DNA of 64,000 nt from Thermoplasmatota archaeon (GCA_046496795.1 JAWOGM010000054.1:558-64557); one strand, 5' to 3'. Positions 4,988-48,945 are shown, counted from the first letter of the stretch. The notes: generated from the sequence alone by a model not told the origin. A program made the numbers and translations.

Positions 4988-6022
4988 TTATTTGTTTTTC
5001 TGTGCTTTTTGTTGAGCGTTCTGCTGTTTTAATTGTTGGGATTTATTTTCTTCTTGTGTTCTGGCAGCTATTAGGCAGCCTCTGGATACTGAAAGGAGAG
5101 GATCCTTGACATGCTTTATTTTGGATAGTTCTACCTTTAGTTTTGCTTCTCTTAATTTTTTCTCAAATAATTCAAAGAATCCATCTGGCTGCGCGCTTCC
5201 TCCTGCAATTGCAACGGGAAATGCTACTTTTGGCGGAGTTATTTCTGAAAGCTTTCGATCTAAATTTTTAATTACATATGTCATTAACGCATCGTAATAA
5301 ACAGTTAGTGCACCTTCAATACTGCCCATCTTAACTTCTTTGTTTAATTTAGAAATTTTTTCTTTTGAGTGGGTAATATGTTCTTTGGGCAAGCCAGTTG
5401 CTTTAGCAACTTGTTGGTCAATCCAATCTCCACCTCTGGATATACTAAACGACATTAGAGGTGTGGCCAGATATGCAAGTGTAACATTAGTTAGACCCGC
5501 ACCTACGCTAATTCCTATTCCTGTAAAATCGTAATCTGCTAGCTCTGAGTAAATCACAGCCAAACCCTCGTCAATTACATGCGTTTCATATTTCAATCCC
5601 TTGAGTAATGCTTCCATGGTTTTTTTATGATATAAAACATTCATGTCTGCATCGATTGGATCTGCTGGTGTTGAAATGTATAATACCTCGTTTTGAATAA
5701 TTGGCTGTCCTAAAACTCTTTCAATTATTAATTTCATAATAGGTATTGCTTCTTTCTCTTTAGGACTTATTATACCCTGCGTCATTGGTCTTCGTGCATC
5801 TTTCTCAAAAATAGTAGCGAATTTAAACGCGTCTTCCCCTATAAGAGAGATGCCTTTCTCATTTTCTATATAGAGTACTTTTGAGGTATCTAACATATTC
5901 TTTGTAAGATCGGTGGAGTCAAGCTCCATAAAAGCGTTTCTCTGCTGCGTAAAAACTATATCGTCTCGATCTTTTCGAGCGCATATAATATTCATGGTCC
6001 CAATATCAAGACCTTTTGCCAT
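4988..6022 (-). CDS. Actin-like ATPase (MreB/ParM/Ta0583 superfamily) with a Q/K-rich C-terminal tail
   Basis: The N-terminal phosphate-1 motif 'GLDIGTMNIICA' and later 'GIGISVGAGLTNVTLA' (phosphate-2-like) fit the actin/Hsp70 fold. Length 344 aa. Confidence 0.5.
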   Translation of the reverse strand: MAKGLDIGTMNIICARKDRDDIVFTQQRNAFMELDSTDLTKNMLDTSKVLYIENEKGISLIGEDAFKFATIFEKDARRPMTQGIISPKEKEAIPIMKLIIERVLGQPIIQNEVLYISTPADPIDADMNVLYHKKTMEALLKGLKYETHVIDEGLAVIYSELADYDFTGIGISVGAGLTNVTLAYLATPLMSFSISRGGDWIDQQVAKATGLPKEHITHSKEKISKLNKEVKMGSIEGALTVYYDALMTYVIKNLDRKLSEITPPKVAFPVAIAGGSAQPDGFFELFEKKLREAKLKVELSKIKHVKDPLLSVSRGCLIAARTQEENKSQQLKQQNAQQKAQKNK

Positions 6023-8873: not shown

Positions 8874-10355
8874 GTGAGTAATATGATTACAATAACAGGT
8901 AAAAACATTATTGCAGGAATAAAATCCTCCAAAGGAAACAATAGTTATCACAGCATAAATCCCAAAACATTTGAAAGATCAAAAATAACTTTTACTGATG
9001 CTAATCAACACGAAATCGACAAAGCATTGGAAGAAGCAAAACTTAGTTTTATGAACCTACAATATAAGACAATACCCCTATTTTTGAAAGAGGTCTCCCA
9101 TCAAATTATGCAGTTAGGAGATCAACTCTTAGAGATAGCAAATTGGGAAACAGCCTTAGGACTCAAAAGATTGGAAAATGAACGAATAAGAACGTGTACC
9201 CAAATAGAAAAATTTGCAGAATATATTGAACAAGGAAATCATTGGGATATTTCTATTGATCAACAATCAAATATTAAAAGTATGAACGTACCAATTGGAC
9301 CTATCCTGGTATTCCCTGCTAGTAATTTTCCATTCGCATTTGGAGTATGTGGCGGAGATACGGTTTCAGCCTGGGCAGCGGGGTGCCCAGCCATTGTCAA
9401 GGCACATCCATCCCATCCACAAACCTCTGAATTATTTGCTCATGGCGTTAATAAAGCAATAGAAAAACAACAGATGCCAAAAGGTTTTTTCTCATTGCTA
9501 CACGGGAAAAATCCCAATGTATCAAAAAAGCTGGTCCTTCACCCTAGATTAGAAGCAATCGGGTTTACTGGATCATTTTCCGTTGGAAATTCTCTCTTTC
9601 AATTAGCAACATCCCGTACCAAACCTATACCAGTGTATGCTGAAATGGGTAGCATCAATCCAATGTTTATTGTTAGCTACCAAAATGATACTCCAGAAGA
9701 AATTGCAAATTCGATAACTATTGGATCAGGGCAATTTTGTACAAAACCAGGTGTTATTTTTGTTACTGAAGAAACAATAGACATTATCGGAAAAATCATT
9801 GAAAAAATCAAAAAAATAAAACAAGGAATTTTATTAAATGAAAATATAAAAAAAAGGCTAGCTACATCTGTTTATGAAACAAGACAGATAAAAAATGTCG
9901 AAGTTTTAGTGGGTGGAAATGAGATACCAAATCAGTGTTCATTTGACAATACTCTTTTAATAACAGATGCTAAAACATATTTGAAACACAATATTTTGCA
10001 TCATGAACATTTCGGACCAGTCGCACTATTTGTGAAATGTAAACATATAGAAGAATTTATAGAAATAGCCAAAACCCTTGAGGGGCAACTCACCGCATCG
10101 ATATATACGCAAGATACTGAAATGAATACTGTAAAGCCCTTATTTAAAGAACTTATACATAGAGTTGGAAGAATAATTATCAACGGAGTTCCAACCGGTG
10201 TGAAAGTATGTACAGCCATGACTCATGGAGGGCCATATCCAGCAACAACTGCCCCTCATACAACCTCGGTGGGAATGAAAGCAATTAGGAGATTTCTCCG
10301 CCCCATTTCGTTTCAGAATGTTCCAAGCAAATTATTGCCTGAACCATTGCAATAA
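8874..10355 (+). CDS. NAD(P)+-dependent aldehyde dehydrogenase (KGSADH/2,5-dioxovalerate dehydrogenase-like subfamily)
   Basis: The catalytic Cys region 'GSGQFCTKPGVIF' matches the GQFCTxPG subfamily. The Glu region 'YAEMGSINP' is also present. Length 493 aa. Confidence 0.8.
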   Translation: MSNMITITGKNIIAGIKSSKGNNSYHSINPKTFERSKITFTDANQHEIDKALEEAKLSFMNLQYKTIPLFLKEVSHQIMQLGDQLLEIANWETALGLKRLENERIRTCTQIEKFAEYIEQGNHWDISIDQQSNIKSMNVPIGPILVFPASNFPFAFGVCGGDTVSAWAAGCPAIVKAHPSHPQTSELFAHGVNKAIEKQQMPKGFFSLLHGKNPNVSKKLVLHPRLEAIGFTGSFSVGNSLFQLATSRTKPIPVYAEMGSINPMFIVSYQNDTPEEIANSITIGSGQFCTKPGVIFVTEETIDIIGKIIEKIKKIKQGILLNENIKKRLATSVYETRQIKNVEVLVGGNEIPNQCSFDNTLLITDAKTYLKHNILHHEHFGPVALFVKCKHIEEFIEIAKTLEGQLTASIYTQDTEMNTVKPLFKELIHRVGRIIINGVPTGVKVCTAMTHGGPYPATTAPHTTSVGMKAIRRFLRPISFQNVPSKLLPEPLQ

Positions 10356-33312: not shown

Positions 33313-33552
33313 ATGAAAAAAGGAATAACCATAGGATTTTCAATGCTGATACTTGCTATAATCCTCTGGATAGCATATGGATTATACATCGGCTTTGAAG
33401 AAATATTACAAGCCCTTGATATCATCACAGGACTCTTAACAGGATTGGTAGTGGTAGGAATTATTATATTATTTCTGTCAATCATTTTCGAACAACGTGA
33501 TGATACAAAAAAAATGAAACAAAAAATAAACAAGGAGGATTTAGAACCATGA
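33313..33552 (+). CDS. Small two-TM membrane protein
   Basis: Two hydrophobic helices and a charged C-terminus. Its stop overlaps the YbjQ start (ATGA). Confidence 0.4.
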   Translation: MKKGITIGFSMLILAIILWIAYGLYIGFEEILQALDIITGLLTGLVVVGIIILFLSIIFEQRDDTKKMKQKINKEDLEP

Positions 33553-33863
33553 TACTAACAACAACCGACTTTATAACAGGGAAAGAAATCAAAGAAATAT
33601 TAGGCCTTGTCAGAGGAAACACCATACAGGCAAAAAGCATTGGCAAAGATTTCAAAGCAGGACTACGCCACATTGCCGGTGGAGAAATAAAAGAATATAC
33701 AAGTATGCTTGCAGAATCACGAGAAATCGCCTTAAAAAGAATGGAAGAAAAAGCACAGAAAATCAATGCAGATGCCGTCATCAACATACGATTTATGACC
33801 TCATCAATTATGGGTGGAGCAGCAGAAATACTTGCCTATGGAACAGCAGTAAAACTAAAGTGA
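33549..33863 (+). CDS. YbjQ/UPF0145 (DUF74) family protein, copy A
   Basis: Whole-length resemblance to the UPF0145 family: 'ITGKEIKEILGLVRGNTIQAKSIGKDF...ADAVINIRF...GAAEILAYGTAVKL'. Confidence 0.8.
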   Translation: MILTTTDFITGKEIKEILGLVRGNTIQAKSIGKDFKAGLRHIAGGEIKEYTSMLAESREIALKRMEEKAQKINADAVINIRFMTSSIMGGAAEILAYGTAVKLK

Positions 33864-36006: not shown

Positions 36007-36321
36007 ATGATGGTAACAACAACAGAACAAATCCCTGGTAGAGATGTAAAAGAAGTATTAGGAGTCGTCTTTGGAAGTTGCGTACAAATGAAACATATCG
36101 GAAAAGACATACGAGCAGCAGGAAGAACACTCATTGGAGGAGAAGCTAAAGGATATACAGAACTCATGGAAGAATCACGCAGAACAGCAATGCAACGGAT
36201 GATAGATGATGCTAAAAAACTTGGTGCTGACGCTGTCATTGGTATGAGATATGCAACAGCACAAACCATGCATGGTGCCGCAGAGCTCATCGCATTTGGA
36301 ACAGCAGTGAAAACACACTAA
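36007..36321 (+). CDS. YbjQ/UPF0145 (DUF74) family protein, copy B
   Basis: Paralog of 33549..33863: 'IPGRDVKEVLGVVFGSCVQMKHIGKDI...ADAVIGMRY...GAAELIAFGTAVK'. Confidence 0.8.
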   Translation: MMVTTTEQIPGRDVKEVLGVVFGSCVQMKHIGKDIRAAGRTLIGGEAKGYTELMEESRRTAMQRMIDDAKKLGADAVIGMRYATAQTMHGAAELIAFGTAVKTH

Positions 36322-36336: not shown

Positions 36337-37047
36337 ATGCCAGTTGTTGAAGTAAAAAATCTTTTAAAAACATTTGGATCAACACAAGCAGTCAACAAAA
36401 TCTCATTTACCGTTAACAAAGGAGAAATCTTTGGCCTTATTGGACCAAACGGTGCCGGAAAAACAACAGCCTTACGAATCATTTCAACCCTTCTTCAAAT
36501 AACTTCAGGGGACGTAACTATTTTAGGATATGACGCGAAAAAAAAACCAGACCAAATCCGAAAAGTTATTAGCTACCTACCCGAGGATGCAGGAGCATAT
36601 AAAAATTTAACAGGAAGAACATATCTGCGGTTCATCGCCTGTTTTTTTGAAAAAAAACCAGAAGACATAATATCTAGAGGAATAACCATTGCAGATCTTG
36701 GCGACAGAATTGATGATAAAGTAGACACCTACAGTAAAGGAATGAAACGGCGATTATTAGTAGCTAGAGCATTAATGATACAACCAAAACTAGCAATTCT
36801 AGATGAACCGACATCAGGATTGGATGTCATAAACGCCCAAGAAATACGAAAAATAATAAAAAATACCGCAAAAAGCGGGGCTGCTGTTCTTCTTTCCTCT
36901 CACAATATGCTTGAAGTAGAATTCCTCTGCGATAGAATTGCACTTATCGCACAGGGAAGAATCGTTGAAGAAGGAGCGCCAAATAAACTCTTAGACCGTT
37001 ACAATGCAAATAACATTGAAGAAGTGTTTGTGAAGGCGGTTTCATGA
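36337..37047 (+). CDS. ABC transporter ATP-binding protein
   Basis: Walker A 'GPNGAGKTT', signature 'YSKGMKRRL', Walker B 'AILDEPTSGLD', H-loop 'SSHNM'. Confidence 0.85.
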   Translation: MPVVEVKNLLKTFGSTQAVNKISFTVNKGEIFGLIGPNGAGKTTALRIISTLLQITSGDVTILGYDAKKKPDQIRKVISYLPEDAGAYKNLTGRTYLRFIACFFEKKPEDIISRGITIADLGDRIDDKVDTYSKGMKRRLLVARALMIQPKLAILDEPTSGLDVINAQEIRKIIKNTAKSGAAVLLSSHNMLEVEFLCDRIALIAQGRIVEEGAPNKLLDRYNANNIEEVFVKAVS

Positions 37048-38327
37048 GCGCACTTACAAATATTTTTAAAAAAGAATTAAAAGAACTTTTAACACCTGCA
37101 GCAATATTACCCATAGTAGTACTTGCTATATTATTTGGCTCAATTGGTAGTTCAATGGAAGGAATTCAATCGGGACTTGAAGAAAAACCAATAATAGGAG
37201 TCATCAATGAAGATAGTGGTAATTTTTCTAAATTAGCAAATTCAATAATAAATAATCACTCCAGAGTCATTTATAACTCAACTGATAGTGCTGATAAACA
37301 ACAAGCCCTTGAACAAATAACAGCTGAGCAGGGATTGGCCTTACTTATTATTCCGCAAAATTTCTCTAAAAATATTTACAATAATACTCAAGGCCAAATC
37401 GATATCTATTGGATAATGAGAGGAGCAGGAATTTTTGATACCATATCCTCAGAAACAGTGCAAGCAATTATTTCAATAATTAACAGAGAAATATCAAGAT
37501 ATCTCATTGATCAAAATACAACAATTAACGCAAGTATTGTGTTATCGCCCACCGTTAAAACCGATACAACCTACTTTAAAGACAGAGTAATTCATCTCCC
37601 TCCAACAACAATTTCAGGGATGCTCTCATCGCAATCACTTCTTATCCCAATTGTGATTATGATGATCATAATAATGGCAGGAAGCATGGTCATCTCATCA
37701 ATGGCCTTGGAAAAAGAGAATAAAACACTTGAAACACTATTGACCCTACCCATAAAACGAACAAGTATTGTAACTGGAAAAATTGCTGCAAGTGCATTAA
37801 TAGGACTGTTATTTGCAGTGGTTTATATGATTGGGATGAGTCGATACTTTCAAGGAATGCAATTTTCAGATTCAATAAATCTTGCAGATTTTAATTTAGC
37901 GTTAACTTCGTCAGATTTTTTGTTAATAGGAATATCTCTTTTTATCACCCTGATCGCAGCGTTATCTCTTTGTATGCTTCTTGGAACCATGGCTAAAAAT
38001 TACAAAAGCGCACAAACACTAACATTTCCCATCACCATGCTTGCAATGATTCCCATGTTTATTACTATGTTTACTGATTTTGACACCTTACCCCTGGCTT
38101 TAAAAACCGTTATTTATGCAATACCGTTTTCTCATCCCATGATTGCCCCAAAAGCATTAATATTTAATGATTATAGCCTTGTAATTAGCGGAATTATCTA
38201 CGTATCACTATTTGCTCTTGTAACTATTTTTATCGTTGTATGGTTGTTTAAAACAGATAGAATACTTACCGGCAGTACAAAAAAAAATTGGAAAAATATA
38301 TTTACAAAAAGAACAAAAGAAGAGTAA
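37044..38327 (+). CDS. ABC-2 family exporter permease with a large extracytoplasmic loop
   Basis: N-terminal TM helix, a ~150-aa loop, then 5 TM helices. Start overlaps the ATPase stop. Confidence 0.6.
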   Translation: MSALTNIFKKELKELLTPAAILPIVVLAILFGSIGSSMEGIQSGLEEKPIIGVINEDSGNFSKLANSIINNHSRVIYNSTDSADKQQALEQITAEQGLALLIIPQNFSKNIYNNTQGQIDIYWIMRGAGIFDTISSETVQAIISIINREISRYLIDQNTTINASIVLSPTVKTDTTYFKDRVIHLPPTTISGMLSSQSLLIPIVIMMIIIMAGSMVISSMALEKENKTLETLLTLPIKRTSIVTGKIAASALIGLLFAVVYMIGMSRYFQGMQFSDSINLADFNLALTSSDFLLIGISLFITLIAALSLCMLLGTMAKNYKSAQTLTFPITMLAMIPMFITMFTDFDTLPLALKTVIYAIPFSHPMIAPKALIFNDYSLVISGIIYVSLFALVTIFIVVWLFKTDRILTGSTKKNWKNIFTKRTKEE

Positions 38328-38459
38328 TATACCAAAACAATAAAATAAATTATTTGATTATTACATAGAGGAACATATATATAATTTTCTATGGAAAAGT
38401 TTAAATAAAAATTCAACATAATGATATATATAAAAAAAAATTTAGGGAGGAAATAAAAC

Positions 38460-39587
38460 ATGAAAAATATGTTAGTGAAGAGTTTACTCATTGCAATTGT
38501 GCTCTTATTACTTGGAGTGAGTATTCTTCCAACTATCAACGCAACAATAAATGAGGCTAGTGCTATAAACAAACAACCCCAACCACAGCTATTAGATATA
38601 TTTTGGGAAGAAAACTTCGATTCCTACGATCTTGGCAGCTCAATGCATGAGCAAGGTGGCTGGAAAGGCTGGGATAATAACCCTGCATGGACTGCCTATG
38701 TCACTGATGAGCAATCTCGCAGTAACCCACATTCAGTTGATATTGAAGGTGATGCAGATATTGTCCGTGAATTTTCAGGATTAACATCTGGACAGTGGAA
38801 CCTTACAGCATGGGTCTACGTACCATCAGACCTATTTGGATTATCGTATTTTATTTTACTCAGCGACTATACCGATGGAGCAGGTCAAGCAAATGAGTGG
38901 GCAGTTCAAGTACGATTTGATCCAGATCAAGGAATAGTTGAAGCTGAACATGGTGGCCCAAGTCTGCCATTGATAACTGATCAATGGGTTGAACTAAGTG
39001 TTCTTATAGATCTTGATGTCGACTGGTTTGAATTCTACTATAATGGCGACCTATTGGAAGAAAAAGCTTGGACTGCAGGTCCAAACAACGCAGGAACAGG
39101 AAAGCTTAACATCGGCGCAATAGACCTATTTGCAAACTCTGCAACAAGTGTTTTTTACGACGATATAACCTTAGAAGGAGAAGCAACAGAACCTTCTCTC
39201 ACATGCGAAGGAAGCCTGAGCTGGACTGATGTGGAACCTGGTGCTACTGTTACAGGAACCTTTACCATTGCAAATATTGGAGCCCCCGGATCTGATCTTA
39301 ACTGGGAGATACAAAACTTTCCAACCTGGGGAACTTGGACATTCACACCAAACAGTGGAACAGGCTTAAAGCCAGAAGATGGAGAACTCACCATTGAAGT
39401 GGAAGTTGTCGCTCCAATTGATAAAAATGAAAATTTCACAGGATCAGTAAGAGTCGTCAATAGTGATAATACCAATAACTATTGTGATATTGATGTAGCG
39501 CTTGCAACACCAGTAAGTTATTACAGGCCGCTACTGCAACGATTTATCAGCAGACATCCCATATTAGCACAACTCCTTGGATTGTAA
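38460..39587 (+). CDS. Secreted protein with a CARDB-like beta-sandwich and a conserved C-terminal tail '...HPILAQLLGL'
   Basis: Signal peptide 'MKNMLVKSLLIAIVLLLLGVSILP'. The C-terminal ~110 aa are paralogous to 40170..40700 ('WTDVEPGATVTGTFTIANIGAPGSDLNWEI...TGLKPEDGELTIEVEV'). Confidence 0.5.
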   Translation: MKNMLVKSLLIAIVLLLLGVSILPTINATINEASAINKQPQPQLLDIFWEENFDSYDLGSSMHEQGGWKGWDNNPAWTAYVTDEQSRSNPHSVDIEGDADIVREFSGLTSGQWNLTAWVYVPSDLFGLSYFILLSDYTDGAGQANEWAVQVRFDPDQGIVEAEHGGPSLPLITDQWVELSVLIDLDVDWFEFYYNGDLLEEKAWTAGPNNAGTGKLNIGAIDLFANSATSVFYDDITLEGEATEPSLTCEGSLSWTDVEPGATVTGTFTIANIGAPGSDLNWEIQNFPTWGTWTFTPNSGTGLKPEDGELTIEVEVVAPIDKNENFTGSVRVVNSDNTNNYCDIDVALATPVSYYRPLLQRFISRHPILAQLLGL

Positions 39588-39662: not shown

Positions 39663-39677
39663 TTACGGACGTGGCGG
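39663..39677 (+). repeat. attL: a 15-bp direct repeat TTACGGACGTGGCGG copying the 3' end of tRNA-Arg. A degenerate 26-bp extension matches at 21 of 26 positions.
   Basis: Identical to 48721-48735. It is GC-rich in an AT-rich background and sits in intergenic DNA. Confidence 0.6.
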
Positions 39678-39806
39678 CGTCTGAACCTATTTCCTCCTGT
39701 TAAAAAGTTCAATAATAACATAAAAATCGCACTTATAGATTTTTCAGCATCCCTCACTAAAATCTTTTTTCTTTCTTTTTTTGTCACATTTTTTTGAGGT
39801 GCTAAC

Positions 39807-40175
39807 ATGAAGCAGAAATCAATATACGATAACATGACTAAATCAGAAAAAATCGTTGCACAATTTTTGAAAGATCTTGGAATCTTTTGGTCATATGAAA
39901 AACCTATATATGTATGGGACAGAAATAAAAGACCGCGAGTTTGGACTCCCGATTTTTTCCTTAACCAGTTTAGTATCTATGTTGAGGTTTGCGGGTCAGA
40001 AGATTTTGATTATGAATATAGAAGAATAACGTACAAAGAGAATGGATATAATGTTATATTTTTACACCTGTATAAAGAGACAAATAGATGGAAAGAACAT
40101 TTTTTCCAGTATATTTCAAAAATATCAAATTATAGAAATGAGTGGTTAAACAGATTACGTATGAAATATTCATAA
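39807..40175 (+). CDS. DUF559 (Vsr-like endonuclease fold) domain protein
   Basis: 'NMTKSEKIVAQFLKDLGIFWSYEKPI...TPDFFLNQFSIYVEVCGSED...ENGYNVIFLHLYKE' parallels the DUF559 pattern (MTxAEkxLW...YIvDF...IEvDG...G..VlRf). Confidence 0.6.
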   Translation: MKQKSIYDNMTKSEKIVAQFLKDLGIFWSYEKPIYVWDRNKRPRVWTPDFFLNQFSIYVEVCGSEDFDYEYRRITYKENGYNVIFLHLYKETNRWKEHFFQYISKISNYRNEWLNRLRMKYS

Positions 40176-40700
40176 TCCGACTAGTTGTCTTAGTATCGGA
40201 AATACATTTGGAAACTGCTCTGAAATTAATAAAAGAAATTTATATATATTTATTTCAGTATTTTTCTGAATCTTTGTTGGAGTTATTAAGCTTAATTCAA
40301 AAATATGAAAATCTTCTGGATTATCACTATTAATAATTTTCACCTCTCCACCAAACTCTGTAAGATGTTCATATGGCGCATCGACCTCAACTACAACTGT
40401 CAATGTTTCATCCTCAGGTTTCAATCCAGTTCCATCATCAGGATCAAACCTCCATTCACCCCATTCAGGCCATGAATCTACTTCCCAATTAAGTTCAGAA
40501 TTCGGATCGCCGATGTTTTTCACAATAAAACTATCCTCGACTGTTGCACCAGGTATTACATCAACCCACCCTATCTCCCCATCGCAATCCAAATCAGGAA
40601 CAGGATCACCTATTATTTTATATGAATTACATAACGGCATAAAAACTAAAAACAACAATAATACTGCAACCATTAACGGAAATATTGATTTTCTAAGCAT
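40170..40700 (-). CDS. Secreted protein with a CARDB-like domain and the C-terminal tail '...FPILRQLVGL'. The true start is the internal Met at 40700, not the tracked 40928.
   Basis: The signal peptide 'MLRKSIFPLMVAVLLLFLVFMPLC' begins at residue 77 of the tracked ORF; the upstream 76 residues are AT-rich read-through. It is a paralog of the C-terminal half of 38460..39587. Confidence 0.5.
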   Translation of the reverse strand: MLRKSIFPLMVAVLLLFLVFMPLCNSYKIIGDPVPDLDCDGEIGWVDVIPGATVEDSFIVKNIGDPNSELNWEVDSWPEWGEWRFDPDDGTGLKPEDETLTVVVEVDAPYEHLTEFGGEVKIINSDNPEDFHIFELSLITPTKIQKNTEINIYKFLLLISEQFPNVFPILRQLVGL

Positions 40701-40881
40701 GTTCTTATTTCCCCTTATACATAAAGAATATAGAAAATGGTATTTATAAATTTCGCAAATTTTGTAAACAATTATTACATGAAAGACAAAATATTGAAAA
40801 AAAATAATAAATATTATAAACATTATGATTATCTCACTACAAGTAACATTGAATATAATTCGTAGGACGAAGGGAGAAAAC

Positions 40882-43800
40882 ATGAATAATTCTTGTTTAA
40901 ATAAATACCTAAAGGCTAGTATTCTCATAGGCAGCTTAATAATATTGATTTTTATGTTGAATTCAGCACAAGCAACAGAAATTGAAATGGATTTTTCATT
41001 TGAAGAACCTGATATAACCGAACTTACAATATCAGATGAAACATATCATGATGTTAAGATTGATGGTTTGAAAACAACAGGTGACACTGGTTTACCTTTG
41101 TTGCCGGTAAAAACAGTTAAAATTCTTCTACCACAAAGAGGAGTTTTGGAGTCGATAGATGTAGTTTTAGATGGTAATACATCAATGGGCCAGAATTATA
41201 ATGTTACACTTGGGAAAGAATCTGTTAATTTGTCTGGTGGGCAAAACGGGTCAAATGAGTCATATTTTAATGAATCAATACCATATCCAACGACTTCTTA
41301 TGATAAAATTGGTGTTTTTCATTTCAGGGGGCATTCCTTTTTGATAATTAATCTTCATCCATGTTATTACATTGGTGAAACCGGGGAGATATATTACTAT
41401 GAAAATATTTCTCTTACAGTAACAACAAATGAAGTGGGTAATGTTAGTAAATTTTTTAGAAATACAACAACTGATGAAGAATTGATAAAGGAGAAGGTAG
41501 ATAATTATGATTGTATATCCAGTTATGATACTAAGGTGGGTTTTTCAAAAAACTCAGATCTCGTTGATCCTCAAGATTCTTATGATTATGTCATTATAAC
41601 AAAAAAGAAGTTTAAAAATGCTATTTGTCCACAGGGTTTCAGATTCTGGTATACGTTTCAGGATTTAGCAGATTATAAAAATAGTACAGGTACACAAACA
41701 ATAGTTGTAGCTCTTGAGGACATTTTAAATGAACCTGAATATCATTGGGATGGTGAATTTGGCGATGGTTTAAATGAAAGTATTTTTAATGACACGCAAT
41801 GTCATATCAGAAATTTTATTAAGGATGCATTTCAAAATTGGGGTATTGAATACGTTCTTATTGGAGGAGATCATAATAATACTTTAACTGATTGTGATAT
41901 CGTTCCAGCAAGATTCTTTAAATATACAGAAATTCATATCTCAAAACCTTCTGACATTTATTATTCATGTCTTGACGGCAATTATAATATGGATTCTGAT
42001 GGAGATTTTGGAGAAAAGGGCGATGGAGGTTTTGGTAATGGAGATAACTGGGAGCCAAAATTAGGTTCTGGATATTGTTATGCAGAGGCAGATTCAAGCC
42101 AATATGGAGGTGGGTTTGATGTTGGCTTATTTTCAAAAGAATTAGATATGTCCAATTTTTCTAATGTGTATTTAAATTTTACATGGAGCTTCCGTTCTAA
42201 TTATAACGCCCATATAGAAGTTAATGTTTATTCCGGGGGAAATGATTCTGAAAACAAAGAAGTAACTCTGTGGGAAAAGAGTACTGGTTCTGAAATTCCT
42301 GATCCTATGGTATTGAATTTTAATCCTAGTATATATACTGATCCATCTGAAGTTTATATTGAATTTAATTATACAGATAGTGGTAGTTCCAGTTCAGATT
42401 CAATGAATATCGATGATATAAAAATAACCGGTTTTGATGGCACTAATTGGACGGTGATTTTAAATGAGAGTTTCGAAGGAGACCCTTTTCCTCCGGATGG
42501 TTGGGATCAAAAAAAATATAGTGGAGAAAAAGAATGGGCAATTGAATATTATCAAATCTATCCTGATTTATTTGCAGAAGTTTATATCGGGCGGGCAAGT
42601 GTTGGTAATAGGTTTGAAGTAAACAATTTTGTAACAAAAACACTATCTTATCAAAAAGCGGATGCTCATGATCCATATATTAATAAAACATTGTTACTTG
42701 GTGCAAGGTTAAATAAAAAAACTTGGGGTGGTGATTATAAGGATGAAATCGTAGATAAATGTGATAACGTCTTCAATTCGACAGGTATTCCAAGTGAAAA
42801 TTATACCATTGATAAATTATATGATCGTGATTTATCTCCTGATTATTGGCCTAAAAAGGAGCTAAGACGTAGACTTAATAATGGAGTTAATATAATAAAT
42901 TATATGGGTCATGGAGATTGGGATGGAATTGGTACAAAAGATTATGATGGTGACTTTTCATGGATAGATAAATTTAATATTGCAGATGTTTGTTTACTTC
43001 ATAATAATAAATATTTCTTTATGTATTCTATGGGTTGTTTAAATGGTAAATTTCATTGTTGGTCATCACTTCCTATATTCAATATTACACAATGTGACAG
43101 TTTTGCTGAGTTCCTTACTGTTAGAACAAAGCATGGTGCATATGCGACTATTATGAATACAGGCTCTGGAACATTTATTCCAAGCTCGACCAACTCTTCA
43201 TCCCAATATTTTGATAGGTTTTTTTTCAATGCAACATTTGGAGGTGCTGAAATAAAAGAATTAGGTAGAGCAAATCAGGAATCAAAAGAAAACACCTTAC
43301 CTCTAATATACGATTTAAATGTTTTTTATGGTTTAACTCTTTTTGGTGATCCTCAGATTTCTCTAAAAATTCCAGTTGAAAATAATCCCCCAAATAAACC
43401 TGATACACCGACAGGATATGAAGATCCTGATCATAAATTATTCTGGACTTATTATACTAGTACAACTGATCCAGAAGGAGATCAGCTTTATTATAAATGG
43501 GAATGGGATGATGTTGAAGGTTTGGTATGGTGGATTCCATTTTTACCTTATGATTCAGGTGATACTGCTAGTATGATACGTCCATGGTTAATTCCAGGGA
43601 CTCATAAAGTTAGAGTTAAAGCTATGGATATTTATGGTGCAGAAAGTAATTGGTCTGATCCTTATTACATGTCTGTATCATTTGATCTTAATATGCAAAT
43701 AAACCCTAATCCTGCTGTTGTTGGTGAGACAATTGATTTCAATGCAGAATCAGAATATGGTGAAACATATACCTGGGATTTTGGAGGAAGCAAAGGAATA

Positions 43801-46800
43801 AAATATGGTGCCCAAGTAACTGAAGATTATGATTCTGTCGGTGAATATGAGGTTATCCTAAATGTAACAGGTAGTGAAAACATTACATCAAATGCAACAG
43901 AATCTGTTGAAATTGTATTGTTACGATCTGAAATTGGTTGTTCATCCAATCATGCAGCACCAGACGAAACTATTTACTTTACAAACCTTTCAAAAGGATA
44001 TTATGAAATCAAGGAATGGGAATGGGAATTTGGTGATGGTAATGGATCAACAGATGAGAATCCAAACCACTCTTTTACATCTTCAGGTGTATATAATGTT
44101 ACCTTAAACGTAACAGATGATGAATATAATACAGATGAATTTACTGTGGTCATATATGTAGATACTGTACCCCCGGAAATATCAAATGTTTCCCATTCAT
44201 CTGAGATTATTGGCTATGGGACAAATATCACAATTTCTGCTCATGTCACAGATGATATAAGCGGCATTCAATTGGTTTGTGTCAATATCACCTGTCCTGA
44301 TGACAATAGTGAAAATTATACCATGAACCTTACAAATGATGATAATTACGAATGCACATTTACAAACACTTGGGATCTTGGCATATATAACTATACTATT
44401 TGGGCGATGGATAATGCAAACAACACCAATTCATCATCAGGGCATAGTTTCTCAGTTTCCAGATCGTTTGGTTATACAGAAATTGGGGCCTCAAATCAAA
44501 CCATATGGGATACAATAACTGGATCAACGTTTATGGTCAATGAAAAATGTGTTGCAGATAACCTAACAGTATATATTAACCCGGGTGATGCTACATATGA
44601 TTCACATTATCAGTGTATGATATATGATTATGATGACTCTGAGCTAGTTGGTATTTCTGATGAATTGAATGTTACCTCTGGAGAAGATTGGGTGGTATTT
44701 CCGTTTTCTGAGCCGAAACCTGTGATGATACTTGGGGTTAATTATACCTTGCAATGTTGGAGTGATAATGAAACATTAGCGATGTATTATGTCAATGGAA
44801 CTGGTTATGGTCAGGGGCAGTATTTTGAAGGAATATATGGATATGTTCCTGAAGATATATTGTTTGAATATGAAGATAGGAGATATTCAATTTATTGTAG
44901 CTATTCAAATGATACAATTCCACCAACTATCTCTGATGTAACTGATGACCCAAATACCTGTGGTTTTGGGCAGACAGTAAATATTACAGCAGAAATCAAC
45001 GGCACGATAAGCGGTGTTGATAATGCAACTGTAAATATCACATATCCAGATGAAACATTACATGTTTTTACAATGGACAATACTGAAAATGATATTTATC
45101 AATGCAGTTTCACAGCTACTTGGTTAGTTGACCAATATAACTATTCAATCTGGGCAATAGATGCCTATGGAAATCAAAATACCAGCACGGGTTATAGTTT
45201 TACTGTTTCTTCAAATGCAACAATTGGTGTTTGCACAATCAAGAATATTTATGGTGCCAATGAGTCTATTAATATAACTGATCCGCCCGTAGGTTCACCA
45301 TTTATTGGTTATGAATTACTAGATAATGACAGCGTTCTTCACATCTGGAACAAGTATGATAGTTATTATTTCAACACAAGCAGTGGGTTGCAGCTTACCA
45401 ATAATTATGATGAGTACTGGTCTCATAATGTGTTAATGCTAGGTTACTACAATAATGACCAATGGAATCTTATGTATCGTACTGATGAGCTCAGTGGATT
45501 TACAAAGAGTATTGATTCAGATAATGATACGTTTGTGAATGCTACACTCTGGAAGGATCTAACCTATGGTGGTTATGCCTTCCGACTGGCAATAAGATAT
45601 CATCTAGGTGTGGATGATAATGAGCTTACAATAATTCCGTACATTAAGAATATCGATGATGAAGATATTCCATATGTGTTGGGTTTTGGCTGGGAATTAC
45701 AGGATATTCAAATTGATATGACAGAGACAGGAGACTATATCCAACTGGGTAATGAAAATTATTATCTTAATCAAAGTCTTGATAACAGCTATACGAATCT
45801 TTCTGATCCTATCTATTGTTTCAATGAGGTGACTAATGAAACTGAGATCTGTGGTTATTCCGATCCAGCATTTTATCTCATGGAGAACATCACAGAGACA
45901 ACTACTGAATCATTGTATCTTCGTTGGGATAAAGATCTTACATATAAACTAGAGGTAAAGTCAAGAGCGGGGCAGTATAATGCGCCCGTAACCTTGTTTG
46001 TCAGAATTGGAACATTAAATAATGGTCAGGAGAAATCTACGGATATGTTTTGGTATGATGCTGATCAATATACTTATTATTTCGACAGCTATGATACAAA
46101 ACTCGATGCATGGGAAACAAATCCTAGTAACATGGTTGATGGAAGTACATCGACATTCGCAAGTACAGACATTAGGGATGATTCTGAATATTGTGATAGT
46201 ACATCATTTGGATATGGCGGTGCACCTTCAGGTACGGTCTCTAAAGTTGAGATAAGGGCATATGGTAAATATGAAGAAATTGGTGGCTCTATCAACATAA
46301 AACCAACTTTCAACGGTGGAAACGGTGATAATCATTACTTTTCCCTCCCCGGTTCAGCAGGTTGGTCATCCTGGTTTGATATTACAGATGATACCAATGC
46401 ACCTGAACCATGGACCTGGAGTGATGTTGAAAGTCTTGATTGCTCTATTATTGTATGTGATATCAGACAAGGGGATACATTTTATTGCCATAAAGTTGAG
46501 ATTCGTGTGACAAATAATGAAGCTCCTGTTGATAATAATCCAGCGCCTGCTGATGATAGTATTAATGTTTCAATATCTCCGACTTTGAGCATTAATGTCT
46601 CAGATGCTGAAGGTGATTCTATGAATATTACTTGGTATAGTAATAGCAGTGGTTCTTGGACGTCATTTGGAACTAATAACAGTGTAGGTAATGGTACATA
46701 TTACCAGTCGTTTAGTAATGCTTCTGTGAACGGTCAATGGTGGTACTGGAAGGTTAATGTTTCCGATGGCTCCAACACTTTAGAAAGCAGTGTCTATAAG

Positions 46801-47136
46801 TTCTATACTGGTGTTCAATCAAAGATCTTTAATACTGGTTCCACAAATATTTCTGGTTATTTGTTGATACAAGTTGAATTTTTTAGCGGAACTCAGTTAA
46901 TATGGGTGTTGGATAATGATACAATCAATGAAACCACTCCAAGGACAATAAATGTTGGTGAGCAACTTGCTTTAGATCTGATATTCAACGGTGAAATCAG
47001 TACTGATGATCTTACGCATGGTGATGGAACGTATCGTGTGTATGCAGCATTCCGTGATCCTGATGGCGACGTACTAATATGTGATGATGAAACTTTGCTT
47101 GCAGCTTGGTATGAGTTTGAGGTAGACACCAGCTAA
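40882..47136 (+). CDS. Giant (~2085 aa mature) secreted surface protein with a gingipain-like (C25) domain, PKD-like domains and an internal tandem Ig-like repeat. It is extremely rich in N-glycosylation sequons.
   Basis: The likely start at 40882 is preceded by AGGGAG. Signal peptide 'MNNSCLNKYLKASILIGSLIILIFMLNSAQA'. 'YVLIGGDHNN...VPARFFKY...SDIYYSCLDG', His 'YMGHGDWDG' and Cys 'YSMGCLNGKF' parallel 27316..29202. PKD-like 'YTWDFGGSKG' and 'EWEWEFGDGNGSTDENPNHSFTSSGVYNVTLNVTD'. Repeats 'PPEISNVSHS...HSFSVS' and 'PPTISDVTDD...YSFTVS'. Confidence 0.6.
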   Translation: MNNSCLNKYLKASILIGSLIILIFMLNSAQATEIEMDFSFEEPDITELTISDETYHDVKIDGLKTTGDTGLPLLPVKTVKILLPQRGVLESIDVVLDGNTSMGQNYNVTLGKESVNLSGGQNGSNESYFNESIPYPTTSYDKIGVFHFRGHSFLIINLHPCYYIGETGEIYYYENISLTVTTNEVGNVSKFFRNTTTDEELIKEKVDNYDCISSYDTKVGFSKNSDLVDPQDSYDYVIITKKKFKNAICPQGFRFWYTFQDLADYKNSTGTQTIVVALEDILNEPEYHWDGEFGDGLNESIFNDTQCHIRNFIKDAFQNWGIEYVLIGGDHNNTLTDCDIVPARFFKYTEIHISKPSDIYYSCLDGNYNMDSDGDFGEKGDGGFGNGDNWEPKLGSGYCYAEADSSQYGGGFDVGLFSKELDMSNFSNVYLNFTWSFRSNYNAHIEVNVYSGGNDSENKEVTLWEKSTGSEIPDPMVLNFNPSIYTDPSEVYIEFNYTDSGSSSSDSMNIDDIKITGFDGTNWTVILNESFEGDPFPPDGWDQKKYSGEKEWAIEYYQIYPDLFAEVYIGRASVGNRFEVNNFVTKTLSYQKADAHDPYINKTLLLGARLNKKTWGGDYKDEIVDKCDNVFNSTGIPSENYTIDKLYDRDLSPDYWPKKELRRRLNNGVNIINYMGHGDWDGIGTKDYDGDFSWIDKFNIADVCLLHNNKYFFMYSMGCLNGKFHCWSSLPIFNITQCDSFAEFLTVRTKHGAYATIMNTGSGTFIPSSTNSSSQYFDRFFFNATFGGAEIKELGRANQESKENTLPLIYDLNVFYGLTLFGDPQISLKIPVENNPPNKPDTPTGYEDPDHKLFWTYYTSTTDPEGDQLYYKWEWDDVEGLVWWIPFLPYDSGDTASMIRPWLIPGTHKVRVKAMDIYGAESNWSDPYYMSVSFDLNMQINPNPAVVGETIDFNAESEYGETYTWDFGGSKGIKYGAQVTEDYDSVGEYEVILNVTGSENITSNATESVEIVLLRSEIGCSSNHAAPDETIYFTNLSKGYYEIKEWEWEFGDGNGSTDENPNHSFTSSGVYNVTLNVTDDEYNTDEFTVVIYVDTVPPEISNVSHSSEIIGYGTNITISAHVTDDISGIQLVCVNITCPDDNSENYTMNLTNDDNYECTFTNTWDLGIYNYTIWAMDNANNTNSSSGHSFSVSRSFGYTEIGASNQTIWDTITGSTFMVNEKCVADNLTVYINPGDATYDSHYQCMIYDYDDSELVGISDELNVTSGEDWVVFPFSEPKPVMILGVNYTLQCWSDNETLAMYYVNGTGYGQGQYFEGIYGYVPEDILFEYEDRRYSIYCSYSNDTIPPTISDVTDDPNTCGFGQTVNITAEINGTISGVDNATVNITYPDETLHVFTMDNTENDIYQCSFTATWLVDQYNYSIWAIDAYGNQNTSTGYSFTVSSNATIGVCTIKNIYGANESINITDPPVGSPFIGYELLDNDSVLHIWNKYDSYYFNTSSGLQLTNNYDEYWSHNVLMLGYYNNDQWNLMYRTDELSGFTKSIDSDNDTFVNATLWKDLTYGGYAFRLAIRYHLGVDDNELTIIPYIKNIDDEDIPYVLGFGWELQDIQIDMTETGDYIQLGNENYYLNQSLDNSYTNLSDPIYCFNEVTNETEICGYSDPAFYLMENITETTTESLYLRWDKDLTYKLEVKSRAGQYNAPVTLFVRIGTLNNGQEKSTDMFWYDADQYTYYFDSYDTKLDAWETNPSNMVDGSTSTFASTDIRDDSEYCDSTSFGYGGAPSGTVSKVEIRAYGKYEEIGGSINIKPTFNGGNGDNHYFSLPGSAGWSSWFDITDDTNAPEPWTWSDVESLDCSIIVCDIRQGDTFYCHKVEIRVTNNEAPVDNNPAPADDSINVSISPTLSINVSDAEGDSMNITWYSNSSGSWTSFGTNNSVGNGTYYQSFSNASVNGQWWYWKVNVSDGSNTLESSVYKFYTGVQSKIFNTGSTNISGYLLIQVEFFSGTQLIWVLDNDTINETTPRTINVGEQLALDLIFNGEISTDDLTHGDGTYRVYAAFRDPDGDVLICDDETLLAAWYEFEVDTS

Positions 47137-47183
47137 AACAACATACTTTCTGTAAAGTAGGTCAGACAATTTGGCCTGATTTT

Positions 47184-47390
47184 TCAATATTTTCCTGATT
47201 CAACTTGTTCTTTAAGTAAAAGAAGAGCCTGTTCTACAATATCAGATACAGATCTGAATCTTTTGTTATCTACAGCTGAACCAGTATTTTCTTGTACCCA
47301 TTTTAAAAGAGTTGGATGTATGGTGACGGAAAGTCTTTCTCGTTTTGGTTCTGTTTTCTTTGGTCTTGCCATAATTACATATGAATACAC
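47184..47390 (-). CDS. Ribbon-helix-helix (CopG/Arc-like) DNA-binding protein
   Basis: 'RERLSVTIHPTLLKWVQENTG' has the RHH beta-strand + helix pattern. The likely start is the internal 'MARPKK' at ~47372. It is divergent from the integrase. Confidence 0.55.
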   Translation of the reverse strand: MYSYVIMARPKKTEPKRERLSVTIHPTLLKWVQENTGSAVDNKRFRSVSDIVEQALLLLKEQVESGKY

Positions 47391-47428
47391 ACCGAAACTT
47401 ATAAATATTACTATGCATATTTCATATT

Positions 47429-47447
47429 ATTACATATAATTACATAT
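47429..47447 (+). promoter_or_regulatory. Tandem direct repeat ATTACATAT-A-ATTACATAT in the RHH/integrase divergent intergenic region
   Basis: Read directly. Its position between divergent regulator and integrase starts suggests an operator. Confidence 0.3.
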
Positions 47448-47469
47448 CTTAATTAACGGTGCATGAAAG

Positions 47470-48762
47470 TTGAAGATCATCCAAGAAAACCTAATTAACC
47501 ATTCAACCAATCCATTTACAACCAATTCACATGAATTGGAAGGAGGCAATAATCAAGAATGGAAACAAAATATAGAAAACATAGGCCAGAAATATGTCAA
47601 ACAACCAAATCCCCAATTGGACGGGGAGGAGATGAATGACCGTGGCTATGTAAGACAAAAATTTGATGTTGAAAAATTTAAAAACCCATATATCTTAGAT
47701 CCATCCGAATACAAAACACAACAGGAATTATTCAATGCAATAAAATACTGGTGGGTATTCAAAAGACGGAAAAATGAAAACACGGTAAAGAAACGAATAC
47801 CAATGGCAAAAAGAATGAGCAAACATCCAGTATTCCCAATTAATTGGAAGGAACTAAACCCTAATCAAATCATAGCATATCTAGAGTACAGAGAATACAA
47901 AGAAGGTGCTGGAAAGAACGCGATACGAAACGAATGGGACACACTCAACATGTTTGCAAAGGCATTTGGTATAAACACAGAAACATGGGGATACACACCG
48001 CCAAGTAAACCACCGGCAAAAGTCAAAATAATACCACTACCAAACACAACACACAGTATCATACATTACAGATACTCAAAAGACAAATACACAAATGCAC
48101 TCTTTCAGTACATACTAATGCACGGCTTTGTTATTGGATGGCGACCAAGTGAAATAGTAATCCAGAAAGTACGCGATGTAAACATCGATGATGGCTACAT
48201 GATCATAACTGAGACAAAGAAACACAATCAACTAAGACAGATATTTCCAGAAAAAGACTTAATGATCAATCCAAGACGAAAATGTTTGAAAAACTGGATT
48301 GACAAATGGAGACCCAAGGTCGAAAACCAATACAGTAAAGACTTTTTGTATCTGCAACCAAACGGTAAACCATACACAGTAGATTACTTACGAAAGAAAC
48401 TCTCACCTCTCGTAAAAGAGGCATGGAGACCTTTCAGCCTATACACAATGAGACACTGGTGTGCAACAGCAAGACTTATCAAAAGCAAGACAGAGACAAA
48501 GAAATGGGACATATGGGAAGTTAAAGATTGGATGGGGCATGACAAAATTGACACAACCGAAGATTACGTGAAATATGCGAAAAAATACCATCGAAACGCA
48601 CCGTATGATTGGATTAAGTCCGTCCTCAAATTTCATGACAATTTGGAAGTGGAAAATGGGCTAAAATCAATAAACGGCAAAAAAACCTACGTTTCGAGTG
48701 GAAACAACAGGAGTGGTGAGTTACGGACGTGGCGGGATTCGAACCCGCGATTACCGACTTAG
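47470..48762 (+). CDS. int: Tyrosine recombinase/integrase (pNOB8-type, not split by integration)
   Basis: C-terminal catalytic boxes 'MRHWCATARL' (HxxR) and 'DTTEDYVKYAKKY' (Tyr region). The last ~13 codons are translated from the tRNA-Arg gene. Confidence 0.75.
   Translation: MKIIQENLINHSTNPFTTNSHELEGGNNQEWKQNIENIGQKYVKQPNPQLDGEEMNDRGYVRQKFDVEKFKNPYILDPSEYKTQQELFNAIKYWWVFKRRKNENTVKKRIPMAKRMSKHPVFPINWKELNPNQIIAYLEYREYKEGAGKNAIRNEWDTLNMFAKAFGINTETWGYTPPSKPPAKVKIIPLPNTTHSIIHYRYSKDKYTNALFQYILMHGFVIGWRPSEIVIQKVRDVNIDDGYMIITETKKHNQLRQIFPEKDLMINPRRKCLKNWIDKWRPKVENQYSKDFLYLQPNGKPYTVDYLRKKLSPLVKEAWRPFSLYTMRHWCATARLIKSKTETKKWDIWEVKDWMGHDKIDTTEDYVKYAKKYHRNAPYDWIKSVLKFHDNLEVENGLKSINGKKTYVSSGNNRSGELRTWRDSNPRLPT
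48721..48735 (+). repeat. attR: the 15-bp direct repeat TTACGGACGTGGCGG, covering the tRNA-Arg 3' acceptor/T-arm end plus 3 nt of flank
   Basis: Identical to 39663-39677. Confidence 0.6.
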
Positions 48763-48798
48763 AAGGCCGGTGCCTTATCCAGGCTAGGCCACACGCCC
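48724..48798 (-). tRNA. tRNA-Arg (anticodon UCU)
   Basis: Manual fold: acceptor GGGCGUG/CACGUCC (one G-U), D stem GCCU/AGGC, anticodon stem CCGGC/GUCGG with loop CUUCUAA, T arm GCGGG-UUCGAAU-CCCGC, discriminator G. Confidence 0.85.
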
Positions 48799-48803
48799 AT
48801 AAA

Positions 48804-48891
48804 CGCTGAGGAGGAGATTTGAACTCCTGATCCCCTTTCGGAGAACCGGCTTTCAAGGCCGGCGCGGTAGGCCAGGCTTTGCTACCTCAGC
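48804..48891 (-). tRNA. tRNA-Ser (anticodon UGA), type II with a long variable arm
   Basis: 88 nt. Acceptor GCUGAGG/CCUCAGC, anticodon stem CCGGC/GCCGG with loop CUUGAAA, a 17-nt variable arm, T arm AGGAG-UUCAAAU-CUCCU. I could not resolve the D-stem pairing by eye. Confidence 0.75.
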
Positions 48892-48945
48892 ATATTATTA
48901 AATAGTATTGTAAAAAGAGTATCATAAATTCTTATAAAAAGAATT

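Follow-up and report, generated by a model that had tools for sequence, protein, structure and literature searches.

The question raised by the 64-kb window of archaeal DNA analysed here (the whole stretch, in whose coordinates all positions are given) is whether the segment at 39663–48735, whose right end lies in a tRNA-Arg(TCT) gene beside an integrase gene, is a mobile element inserted at that tRNA and, if so, of what kind. The initial annotation had described a ~9.1-kb integrated element in tRNA-Arg(TCT) at this place. A direct repeat, unoccupied sites in relatives, the geometry of integrase and tRNA, and the integrase class all agree with that description, and we consider it very likely that 39663–48735 is an integrative element as described. 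The element measures 9,058 bp and spans 9,073 bp when both repeat copies are included. The features that define it are the following.

39663–39677, + strand: attL, the left copy of the 15-bp TTACGGACGTGGCGG, corresponding to the displaced tRNA-Arg 3′ end plus 3 nt.
47470–48762, + strand: tyrosine integrase, 430 aa, TTG start (PF00589, E = 7.6e-11; PHROG integrase, E = 3e-15).
48721–48735, + strand: attR, the right 15-bp core copy, forming the 3′ end of the reconstituted tRNA-Arg.
48723–48799, − strand: the target gene, tRNA-Arg(TCT), intact.

The 15-mer TTACGGACGTGGCGG occurs exactly twice in the window, at 39663–39677 and 48721–48735 and in both cases on the + strand, as had been reported, compared to a chance expectation of 0.02 matches in dinucleotide-preserving shuffles (0/100 of which reached two copies). 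It is not dispersed, with no third copy in the window even when up to two mismatches are allowed, and its 12-nt tRNA part, CGGACGTGGCGG, is found at the same two places only. ARAGORN locates tRNA-Arg(tct) at 48723–48799 and tRNA-Ser(tga) at 48803–48892, both on the − strand; taking a 7-bp acceptor stem plus discriminator, the end of tRNA-Arg is at 48724. The right core copy is hence the final 12 nt of tRNA-Arg(TCT) followed by 3 nt of flank, consistent with its initial assignment to the acceptor/T-arm 3′ end, and is made up of 4 nt of the T-stem 3′ strand, the acceptor 3′ strand, the discriminator and the 3-nt flank. Past the core, six of the next 11 positions match, which reproduces the degenerate match of 21 out of 26 positions noted earlier. 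attL has host DNA on its left and the element on its right, and sister elements (see below) have a like repeat at a like place. The mature part of the tRNA-Arg gene (48724–48798) is identical to the gene in the unoccupied relatives L017, L021 and L024 (L-numbers are our labels for the metagenome or genome loci compared).

The integrase, predicted to be complete and to run into the tRNA gene, indeed combines a PF00589 match with all catalytic residues. Its open reading frame (ORF) crosses the repeat and stops within the tRNA gene, overlapping the last 40 nt of the latter on the opposite strand. In an alignment with 31 homologues, the signature R225…Y325xxR328…H357…Y366 and K250/251 are invariant or nearly so, and R225, Y325, R328 and Y366 are strictly invariant; moreover, the 430-aa ORF aligns over its full length with its homologues, so that the gene is whole after integration. 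Because it remains intact and has the signature R…YxxR…Y, the two published features of pNOB8-type (class II) integrases (PMC8371274), it fits the pNOB8-type assignment made initially, one based on these two criteria. Neither the split gene nor the signature K of SSV-type integrases was found, the ORF being whole and having Y325 at that position, nor did Pfam detect a Phage_int_SAM domain in addition to PF00589. The protein has at least 217 homologues (40–79% identity), nearly all of them unnamed or labelled Thermoplasmata, with C-termini reading RDSNPR, GIRTRV or similar, which correspond to antisense T-arm sequence.

To the right of the two tRNA genes are those of ribosomal protein S10 and EF-1α, which mark the host as an archaeon, and it is an uncultured member of the Thermoprofundales (MBG-D, Thermoplasmata). 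Using the ABC permease to the left of the element (37044–38327) as query, we retrieved 80 loci from species-representative genomes, including the Thermoprofundales/MBG-D reference metagenome-assembled genomes M11B2D, M9B1D, 3300003432D, SG8-52-3 and SM1-50 (PMC6461988). In 21 genomes the order is ABC ATPase, permease, 0.77–6.1 kb of variable DNA, tRNA-Arg(tct), tRNA-Ser(tga), S10 and EF-1α, and homologues of the integrase and of two small element proteins described below (122-aa and ribbon-helix-helix (RHH)-like) are absent from the locus in all 21 of these Thermoprofundales relatives. In the two nearest, the DNA that is homologous to the window breaks off at 38313, and homology is regained at 48724 (L075) and 48722 (L022), that is, at the tRNA 3′ end. 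Both have intact tRNA-Arg genes, several relatives have a tRNA identical to that of the window, and L005 has the complete 15-mer as attB. The check for an empty site that had been proposed thus yields a site without the element in 21 relatives, a comparison at the level of species and not of strains. The variable gaps in the relatives mostly hold one conserved gene, of ~627–645 aa or ~185 aa; we considered whether they could be captured element cargo, and found no element genes in them. Upstream of the ABC transporter are two small YbjQ-like paralogues (33549–33854 and 36007–36321, 50% identity), a pair that most relatives have kept.

The arrangement in the window is shared by a family of loci. 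Of 83 integrase loci examined (that of the window, 80 from metagenomes and two on contigs retrieved through homologues), 56 have a tRNA gene (Arg, Glu, Val, Ala, Met or Pro) on the minus strand at the integrase 3′ end, so that the tRNA/integrase geometry first noted in the window is a family trait. The integrase ORF stops inside the tRNA in 47 of the 56, and in many of the remaining loci the contig breaks off at this point. Where enough upstream DNA was present, a repeat of the tRNA 3′ end was found, and six sister elements could be bounded in this way by repeats of 13–26 bp.

L002: 13-bp repeat, 8.3 kb, at tRNA-Glu.
L089: 15-bp repeat, 9.3 kb, at tRNA-Glu.
L150: 26-bp repeat, 5.8 kb, at tRNA-Arg(cct).
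L146: 13-bp repeat, 5.9 kb, at a tRNA-Val-like fragment.
L155: 13-bp repeat, 10.2 kb, at the same tRNA-Arg(tct)/S10 site as in the window.
L157: 14-bp repeat, 3.9 kb, also at the tRNA-Arg(tct)/S10 site of the window.

In all bounded sisters except L155, the repeat is followed at the left end by AACAGGAG or CTCCTGT (15–25 nt past the core), a CTCACTAAA box and a gene for a homologue of the 122-aa protein. The smallest, L157, contains only the nuclease-like gene, one secreted protein gene and the integrase gene. Near-identical left ends are also found behind three different flanks and break exactly at the core (L163 versus L167–L170). The core of the latter loci, ATGGGCCCGCTGAG, matches the 3′ end of a tRNA-Pro-type gene (L163 left end, 9819–10003), and the left neighbour of L163 is an ABC ATPase and permease pair, as in the window. 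In L146, only the 3′ half of a tRNA-Val(TAC)-like sequence, with no ARAGORN call, is present at the integrase 3′ end (5860–5996), and the 13-bp repeat GTGGGCCAGGCCG is still at both ends of the 5.9-kb element.

Some of these loci bear on mobility. In L105, the integrase gene, the core and the nuclease-like gene adjoin with no tRNA between them, the integrase ORF ending one codon after the core, and this junction is that expected of a circular or tandem form. A 9.9-kb contig, L135 (9,907 bp), is circular as judged from its 127-bp terminal overlap; it encodes an integrase of the family (43% identity), a serine recombinase and large uncharacterised proteins, and lacks the 122-aa gene. L155 (984–11215) is an integrated look-alike of L135 at tRNA-Arg(tct), again with a serine recombinase and large uncharacterised proteins, and hence the same integrase family also serves a second, plasmid-like kind of element. 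Other integrases at the tRNA-Arg site of the window (L134, L145, L148, L155 and L157) are only 42–44% identical to that in the window, and L101 (1–2700) has at the same tRNA-Arg/S10 site a 5′-truncated integrase remnant (residues 209–427) of 95% aa identity. The divergent integrases and the remnant together point to a hot spot where elements arrive and decay. In L101 the 5′ half of the integrase gene is replaced by unrelated DNA, with a 309-aa zinc-ribbon protein encoded on the other strand.

From these data, a circular form whose attP lay within the final codons of its integrase gene would have integrated by integrase-mediated recombination of attP with an attB consisting of the last 12 nt of tRNA-Arg(TCT) and 3 nt beyond. 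Crossover would have occurred within the 15-bp identity, in the acceptor and the T-stem 3′ strand and not in the T-loop or the anticodon loop, given that the T-loop side differs between attL and attR. A T-loop crossover was rejected since attP and attB differ at four of seven T-loop positions and the products keep the T-loop side of each parent. The tRNA is intact because the element supplies an identical 3′ end, the displaced original end becoming attL. Excision would be predicted to yield an attP junction in which …GGTGAGTTACGGACGTGGCGG is joined to CGTCTGAACCTATTTCC… (in longer form …AACAGGAGTGGTGAGTTACGGACGTGGCGGCGTCTGAACCTATTTCCTCCTGTT…) and a restored attB junction in which …ACCAATTCTTACGGACGTGGCGG is joined to GATTCGAACCC… (in longer form …GTAGATTACCAATTCTTACGGACGTGGCGGGATTCGAACCCGCGATTACC…). 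A circular intermediate would be part of this cycle, and the window copy may be active at present. The 23-mer of the predicted attL/attP junction is absent from IMG/VR.

As attP falls within the 3′-terminal codons of the integrase gene, the final eight codons and the stop of the integrated gene lie past the core and come from the antisense strand of the tRNA gene. The integrated protein thus ends in …RTWR followed by DSNPRLPT, and the catalytic Tyr366 is 55 residues upstream of the core. In the reconstructed circular form the integrase reads on for 39 codons, to give 461 aa compared to 430 aa when integrated. The window and L002 integrases both read through into NLF(P/S)PV…SLTK, which might suggest a longer excised-form integrase with a conserved C-terminal extension. 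We rejected this, since the ORF of L105 stops one codon past the core and the shared residues coincide with DNA motifs (CTCCTGT and CTCACTAAA) that are conserved in any frame. As the exchanged tail is not conserved among members, we assign no regulatory role to it.

Candidate DNA signals in the element flank both cores.

39694–39701, − strand: P′ arm motif, an inverted AACAGGAG (the + strand reads CTCCTGTT), 16 nt past the core; candidate integrase-binding site.
39753–39761, + strand: CTCACTAAA box, ~45 nt upstream of the nuclease-like gene; probable promoter element of that gene.
48691–48713, + strand: P arm, the palindrome GTTTCGAGTGGAAAC followed by AACAGGAG, within the integrase 3′ end; candidate protein-binding site.

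AACAGGAG or its inverse, CTCCTGT, also follows attL in L002, L089, L155, L157, L146 and L163, and the CTCACTAAA box is conserved in L002, L150, L157, L146 and L163–L170. In many members the P arm is kept as a DNA sequence, at a constant spacing from the tRNA end, and the underlying palindrome GTTTCGAGTGGAAAC plus AACAGGAG accounts for the conservation of VSSGNNRS in an otherwise variable integrase tail. Two classes of arm sequence occur in the family, …AACAGGAGTGG… and …CTCCGAGAGAG…, and these follow the integrase subfamily and not the identity of the tRNA.

Besides the integrase gene, the element has four genes.

39807–40175, + strand: nuclease-like gene, 122 aa, the core gene of the left end.
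40170–40700, − strand: small secreted protein, ~176 aa from the Met at 40700; cargo.
40825–47136, + strand: giant secreted protease, 2,103 aa, likely start Met at 40882; cargo.
47184–47372, − strand: basic protein of 62 aa, divergent from the integrase gene.

In the organisation seen in the family, a conserved core, with the nuclease-like gene on the left and the RHH-like and integrase genes on the right, encloses exchangeable cargo. The 122-aa gene adjoins attL in six of the seven bounded elements, and its product has more than 500 homologues (57–89% identity), being more conserved than the accompanying integrases. It had been labelled DUF559, which Pfam does not support: neither Pfam (even at E ≤ 10) nor NCBIfam gave a match, its homologues are also without a Pfam domain, and a sequence search of the PDB was uninformative. 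The nuclease fold implied by that label is plausible. The AlphaFold model (pLDDT 92) has only weak Foldseek matches (E ≥ 0.014, TM 0.45–0.55), the top ones nearly all to nucleases (Bax1, AbaSI, the putative endonuclease 3HRL and RecE); PHROG matches to resolvases/endonucleases are likewise weak, and the family has an invariant PD…EVC motif that fits a PD-(D/E)XK fold. At least nine sister loci have a homologue of the 62-aa protein (40–89% identity) in the position upstream of the integrase. The initial labelling of this protein as an RHH regulator finds no match for the window copy in Pfam (scanned as a 68-aa ORF) or NCBIfam and weak backing from its homologues, three of ten of which match RHH_1 (best E = 1e-5). 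With the RHH pattern that its sequence displays, it is probably an RHH regulator or directionality factor. The roles of both genes in the element are putative.

The 6.3-kb ORF at 40825–47136 does encode a giant secreted or surface protein, as predicted. Pfam detects Peptidase_C25 (E = 8.5e-46; PF01364, 157 bits versus a curated cut-off of 23), Propeptide_C25 (E = 2.1e-9; PF08126, 37 bits versus 22) and PKD (E ~1e-15) domains, and Ig-like domains are present too. Its YMGHG (His) and SMGCLNG (Cys) segments align with the HG and AC motifs of gingipain R (RgpB, PDB 1CVR), whose residues we take to be His211 and Cys244. By these sequence criteria the protein is a gingipain-family (C25) cysteine peptidase that retains the catalytic His and Cys. 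C25-like proteins are also encoded on the opposite strand downstream of the permease in L007, L013, L015, L033, L041, L043–L045, L050, L059 and L080, relatives without the tRNA-Arg synteny there; these are 26–39% identical to parts of the giant protein of the window, and such genes are hence common chromosomal neighbours of the transporter in the lineage.

The ~176-aa protein has no Pfam or NCBIfam domain and, as had been noted, is a small secreted paralogue, with 45% identity to the C-terminal domain of the product of the host-side gene at 38460–39587 (375 aa), over a CARDB-like or 'choice-of-anchor D'-like domain. Both end in a tail, …FP(I/L)L.QL.GL, that is shared with the L105 2427–2999 (− strand) protein and could be a signal for sorting or anchoring that is specific to the lineage. 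The cargo was initially regarded as unusual, which does not hold for the family, where a giant surface-protein load is the rule: sister elements contain M28 peptidases of 1,675 and 2,006 aa, up to five tandem PQQ/PKD propellers, a NosD-type β-helix protein and CARDB proteins, so that secreted proteins are the usual cargo, with restriction-modification genes in two cases.

Several observations weigh against an integrative element at this site. The GC content of the segment (34.2%) does not differ from that of its flanks (34.5% and 34.1%) and the 15-bp core is short, though the archaeal SNJ2 integrase is known to use att sites of 14 nt (PMC8371274). The empty sites were seen in other species, with permease identities of 53–81%, and since the DNA between permease and tRNA is variable in all relatives, they show absence of the element and not a clean excision scar. 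Furthermore, the host-side gene at 38460–39587 is absent here in all 21 relatives and has a domain in common with a gene of the element, so that the left neighbourhood may hold older captured DNA. An older tandem element over 38460–39587 is unsupported, there being no third core copy (with up to two mismatches) and no left-end motif in 38328–38459. The shortness of the repeat and the variability of the permease–tRNA region in all relatives could even be taken to mean that the repeat is fortuitous and the integrase a resident recombinase beside a tRNA gene. We find this hardly credible, as two copies face an expectation of 0.02, the edge of the repeat falls where a left-end sequence and gene conserved among other elements begin, and the whole segment is missing in 21 relatives.

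That 39663–48735 is an integrative element leaves room for different views of what it now is. It could have integrated as described and since become a fixed, immobile island, the integrase being kept for some other role or not yet decayed and the peptidase gene being in effect a host gene. No excision product of the window copy has been observed, the GC content equals that of the host, and the truncated remnant in L101 shows that decay in place occurs at this very site; the two repeat copies are nonetheless identical, none of the invariant residues is missing from the full-length integrase, the conserved P-arm and P′-arm motifs are intact, and the L101 remnant is closer to the window integrase (95% aa identity) than the EF-1α of the same locus is to that of the window (86%), which suggests recent spread. 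On balance we think such an island unlikely. Still less probable, in our view, is a provirus or integrated plasmid with replication or structural genes that have diverged beyond recognition, an idea to which the related integrases on circular L135 and its integrated look-alike L155 lend some weight. Of the 9.06 kb, 6.3 kb is one secreted peptidase gene and the other genes encode the integrase and proteins of 62, 122 and 176 aa, with no room for a capsid or replicase gene, and the 3.9-kb L157 manages with even less. Searches with Pfam and PHROGs revealed no replication, capsid, conjugation or transposase hallmark genes among the element ORFs, PHROGs detecting only the integrase and the nuclease-like gene. 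IMG/VR contained no relatives (queried with the integrase sequence and the integrase and nuclease alignments), INPHARED had no member of the integrase or nuclease families, and PLSDB gave no plasmid kin at E ≤ 1e-3 beyond ~25% identity to bacterial recombinases, with no Sulfolobus plasmid among the hits. An integrase and att repeats with no viral, conjugative or replication hallmarks make the integrative element of the window a cryptic integrated element in the sense used for Thaumarchaeota (PMC6563490).

The integration mechanism is conventional, and what is new is the element family, with its integrase, nuclease-like partner, attP in the integrase 3′ end and secreted cargo. Magrini, Creighton and Youderian reportedly described in 1999 (J Bacteriol) that attP of the myxophage Mx8, a bacterial phage, lies in the int 3′ end, and that integration alters the integrase C-terminus, the altered form, IntX, being said to have changed activity. 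Our family is like Mx8 in the location of attP within the int 3′ end, and differs in that the exchanged tail is not conserved (461 versus 430 aa in the window, one codon in L105). With pNOB8-type systems (PMC8371274) the element shares an uninterrupted integrase gene, the R…YxxR…Y signature, a tRNA gene as target and flanking direct repeats; unlike in these, attP is within the final codons of the integrase gene and not beside it, and PF00589 is the only domain found, whereas the review lists Phage_int_SAM for the XerA/XerC/pNOB8 group. SSV-type (class I) integrases are split into int(N) and int(C) by integration and have the signature R…KxxR…Y (PMC7253208, PMC8371274). The window integrase resembles them in its att site within the integrase frame and in its compact int plus att module, but exchanges only the eight codons past the core, with the ORF unsplit, Tyr366 well upstream of the core and Y in place of K. 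The 13–15 bp cores here are also comparable to the 14-nt core without a stem-loop in a tRNA gene used by the integrase of the pleolipovirus SNJ2 (PMC5861418, PMC8371274), compared by description only; SNJ2 is, however, a virus, and its integrase family is limited to Halobacteria according to the review. A further parallel is with the cryptic integrated elements that Krupovic et al. (2019, PMC6563490) described in Thaumarchaeota, which range from 2.6 to 98 kb, have att repeats and no viral or conjugative hallmarks, share only the integrase gene, and have variable cargo such as restriction-modification genes. Ours are likewise small and att-flanked, with a shared integrase and variable cargo, but differ in host phylum, in the additional nuclease-like and RHH-like core genes, and in cargo that is mostly secreted or surface proteins.

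The Thermoprofundales (MBG-D) are among the most widespread uncultured sediment archaea and are thought to make their living with secreted peptidases such as gingipain (C25) and M28 enzymes; the genomic survey reporting such enzymes does not mention the word 'integrase' and says nothing on mobile elements (PMC6461988). The att/integrase pair defined here comes from a lineage without genetic tools. The presence of an intact gingipain-type gene and, in sister elements, of M28 peptidase genes as cargo suggests horizontal exchange of extracellular enzymes. Tentatively, and short of an even chance in our estimate, the elements may constitute a large, undescribed, lineage-wide family of non-viral Thermoprofundales mini-elements that act as a dedicated vehicle for moving extracellular protein-degrading enzymes between genomes. 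Their constant genes would be only the integrase gene with attP in its own 3′ end and those for the RHH-like protein and the highly conserved small nuclease-like protein, and their cargo slot would mostly be filled by C25 and M28 peptidases of 1,700–2,100 aa, PQQ/PKD propellers and CARDB proteins. If this were so, the enzymes being moved would be those to which the ecological role of these sediment archaea is ascribed.

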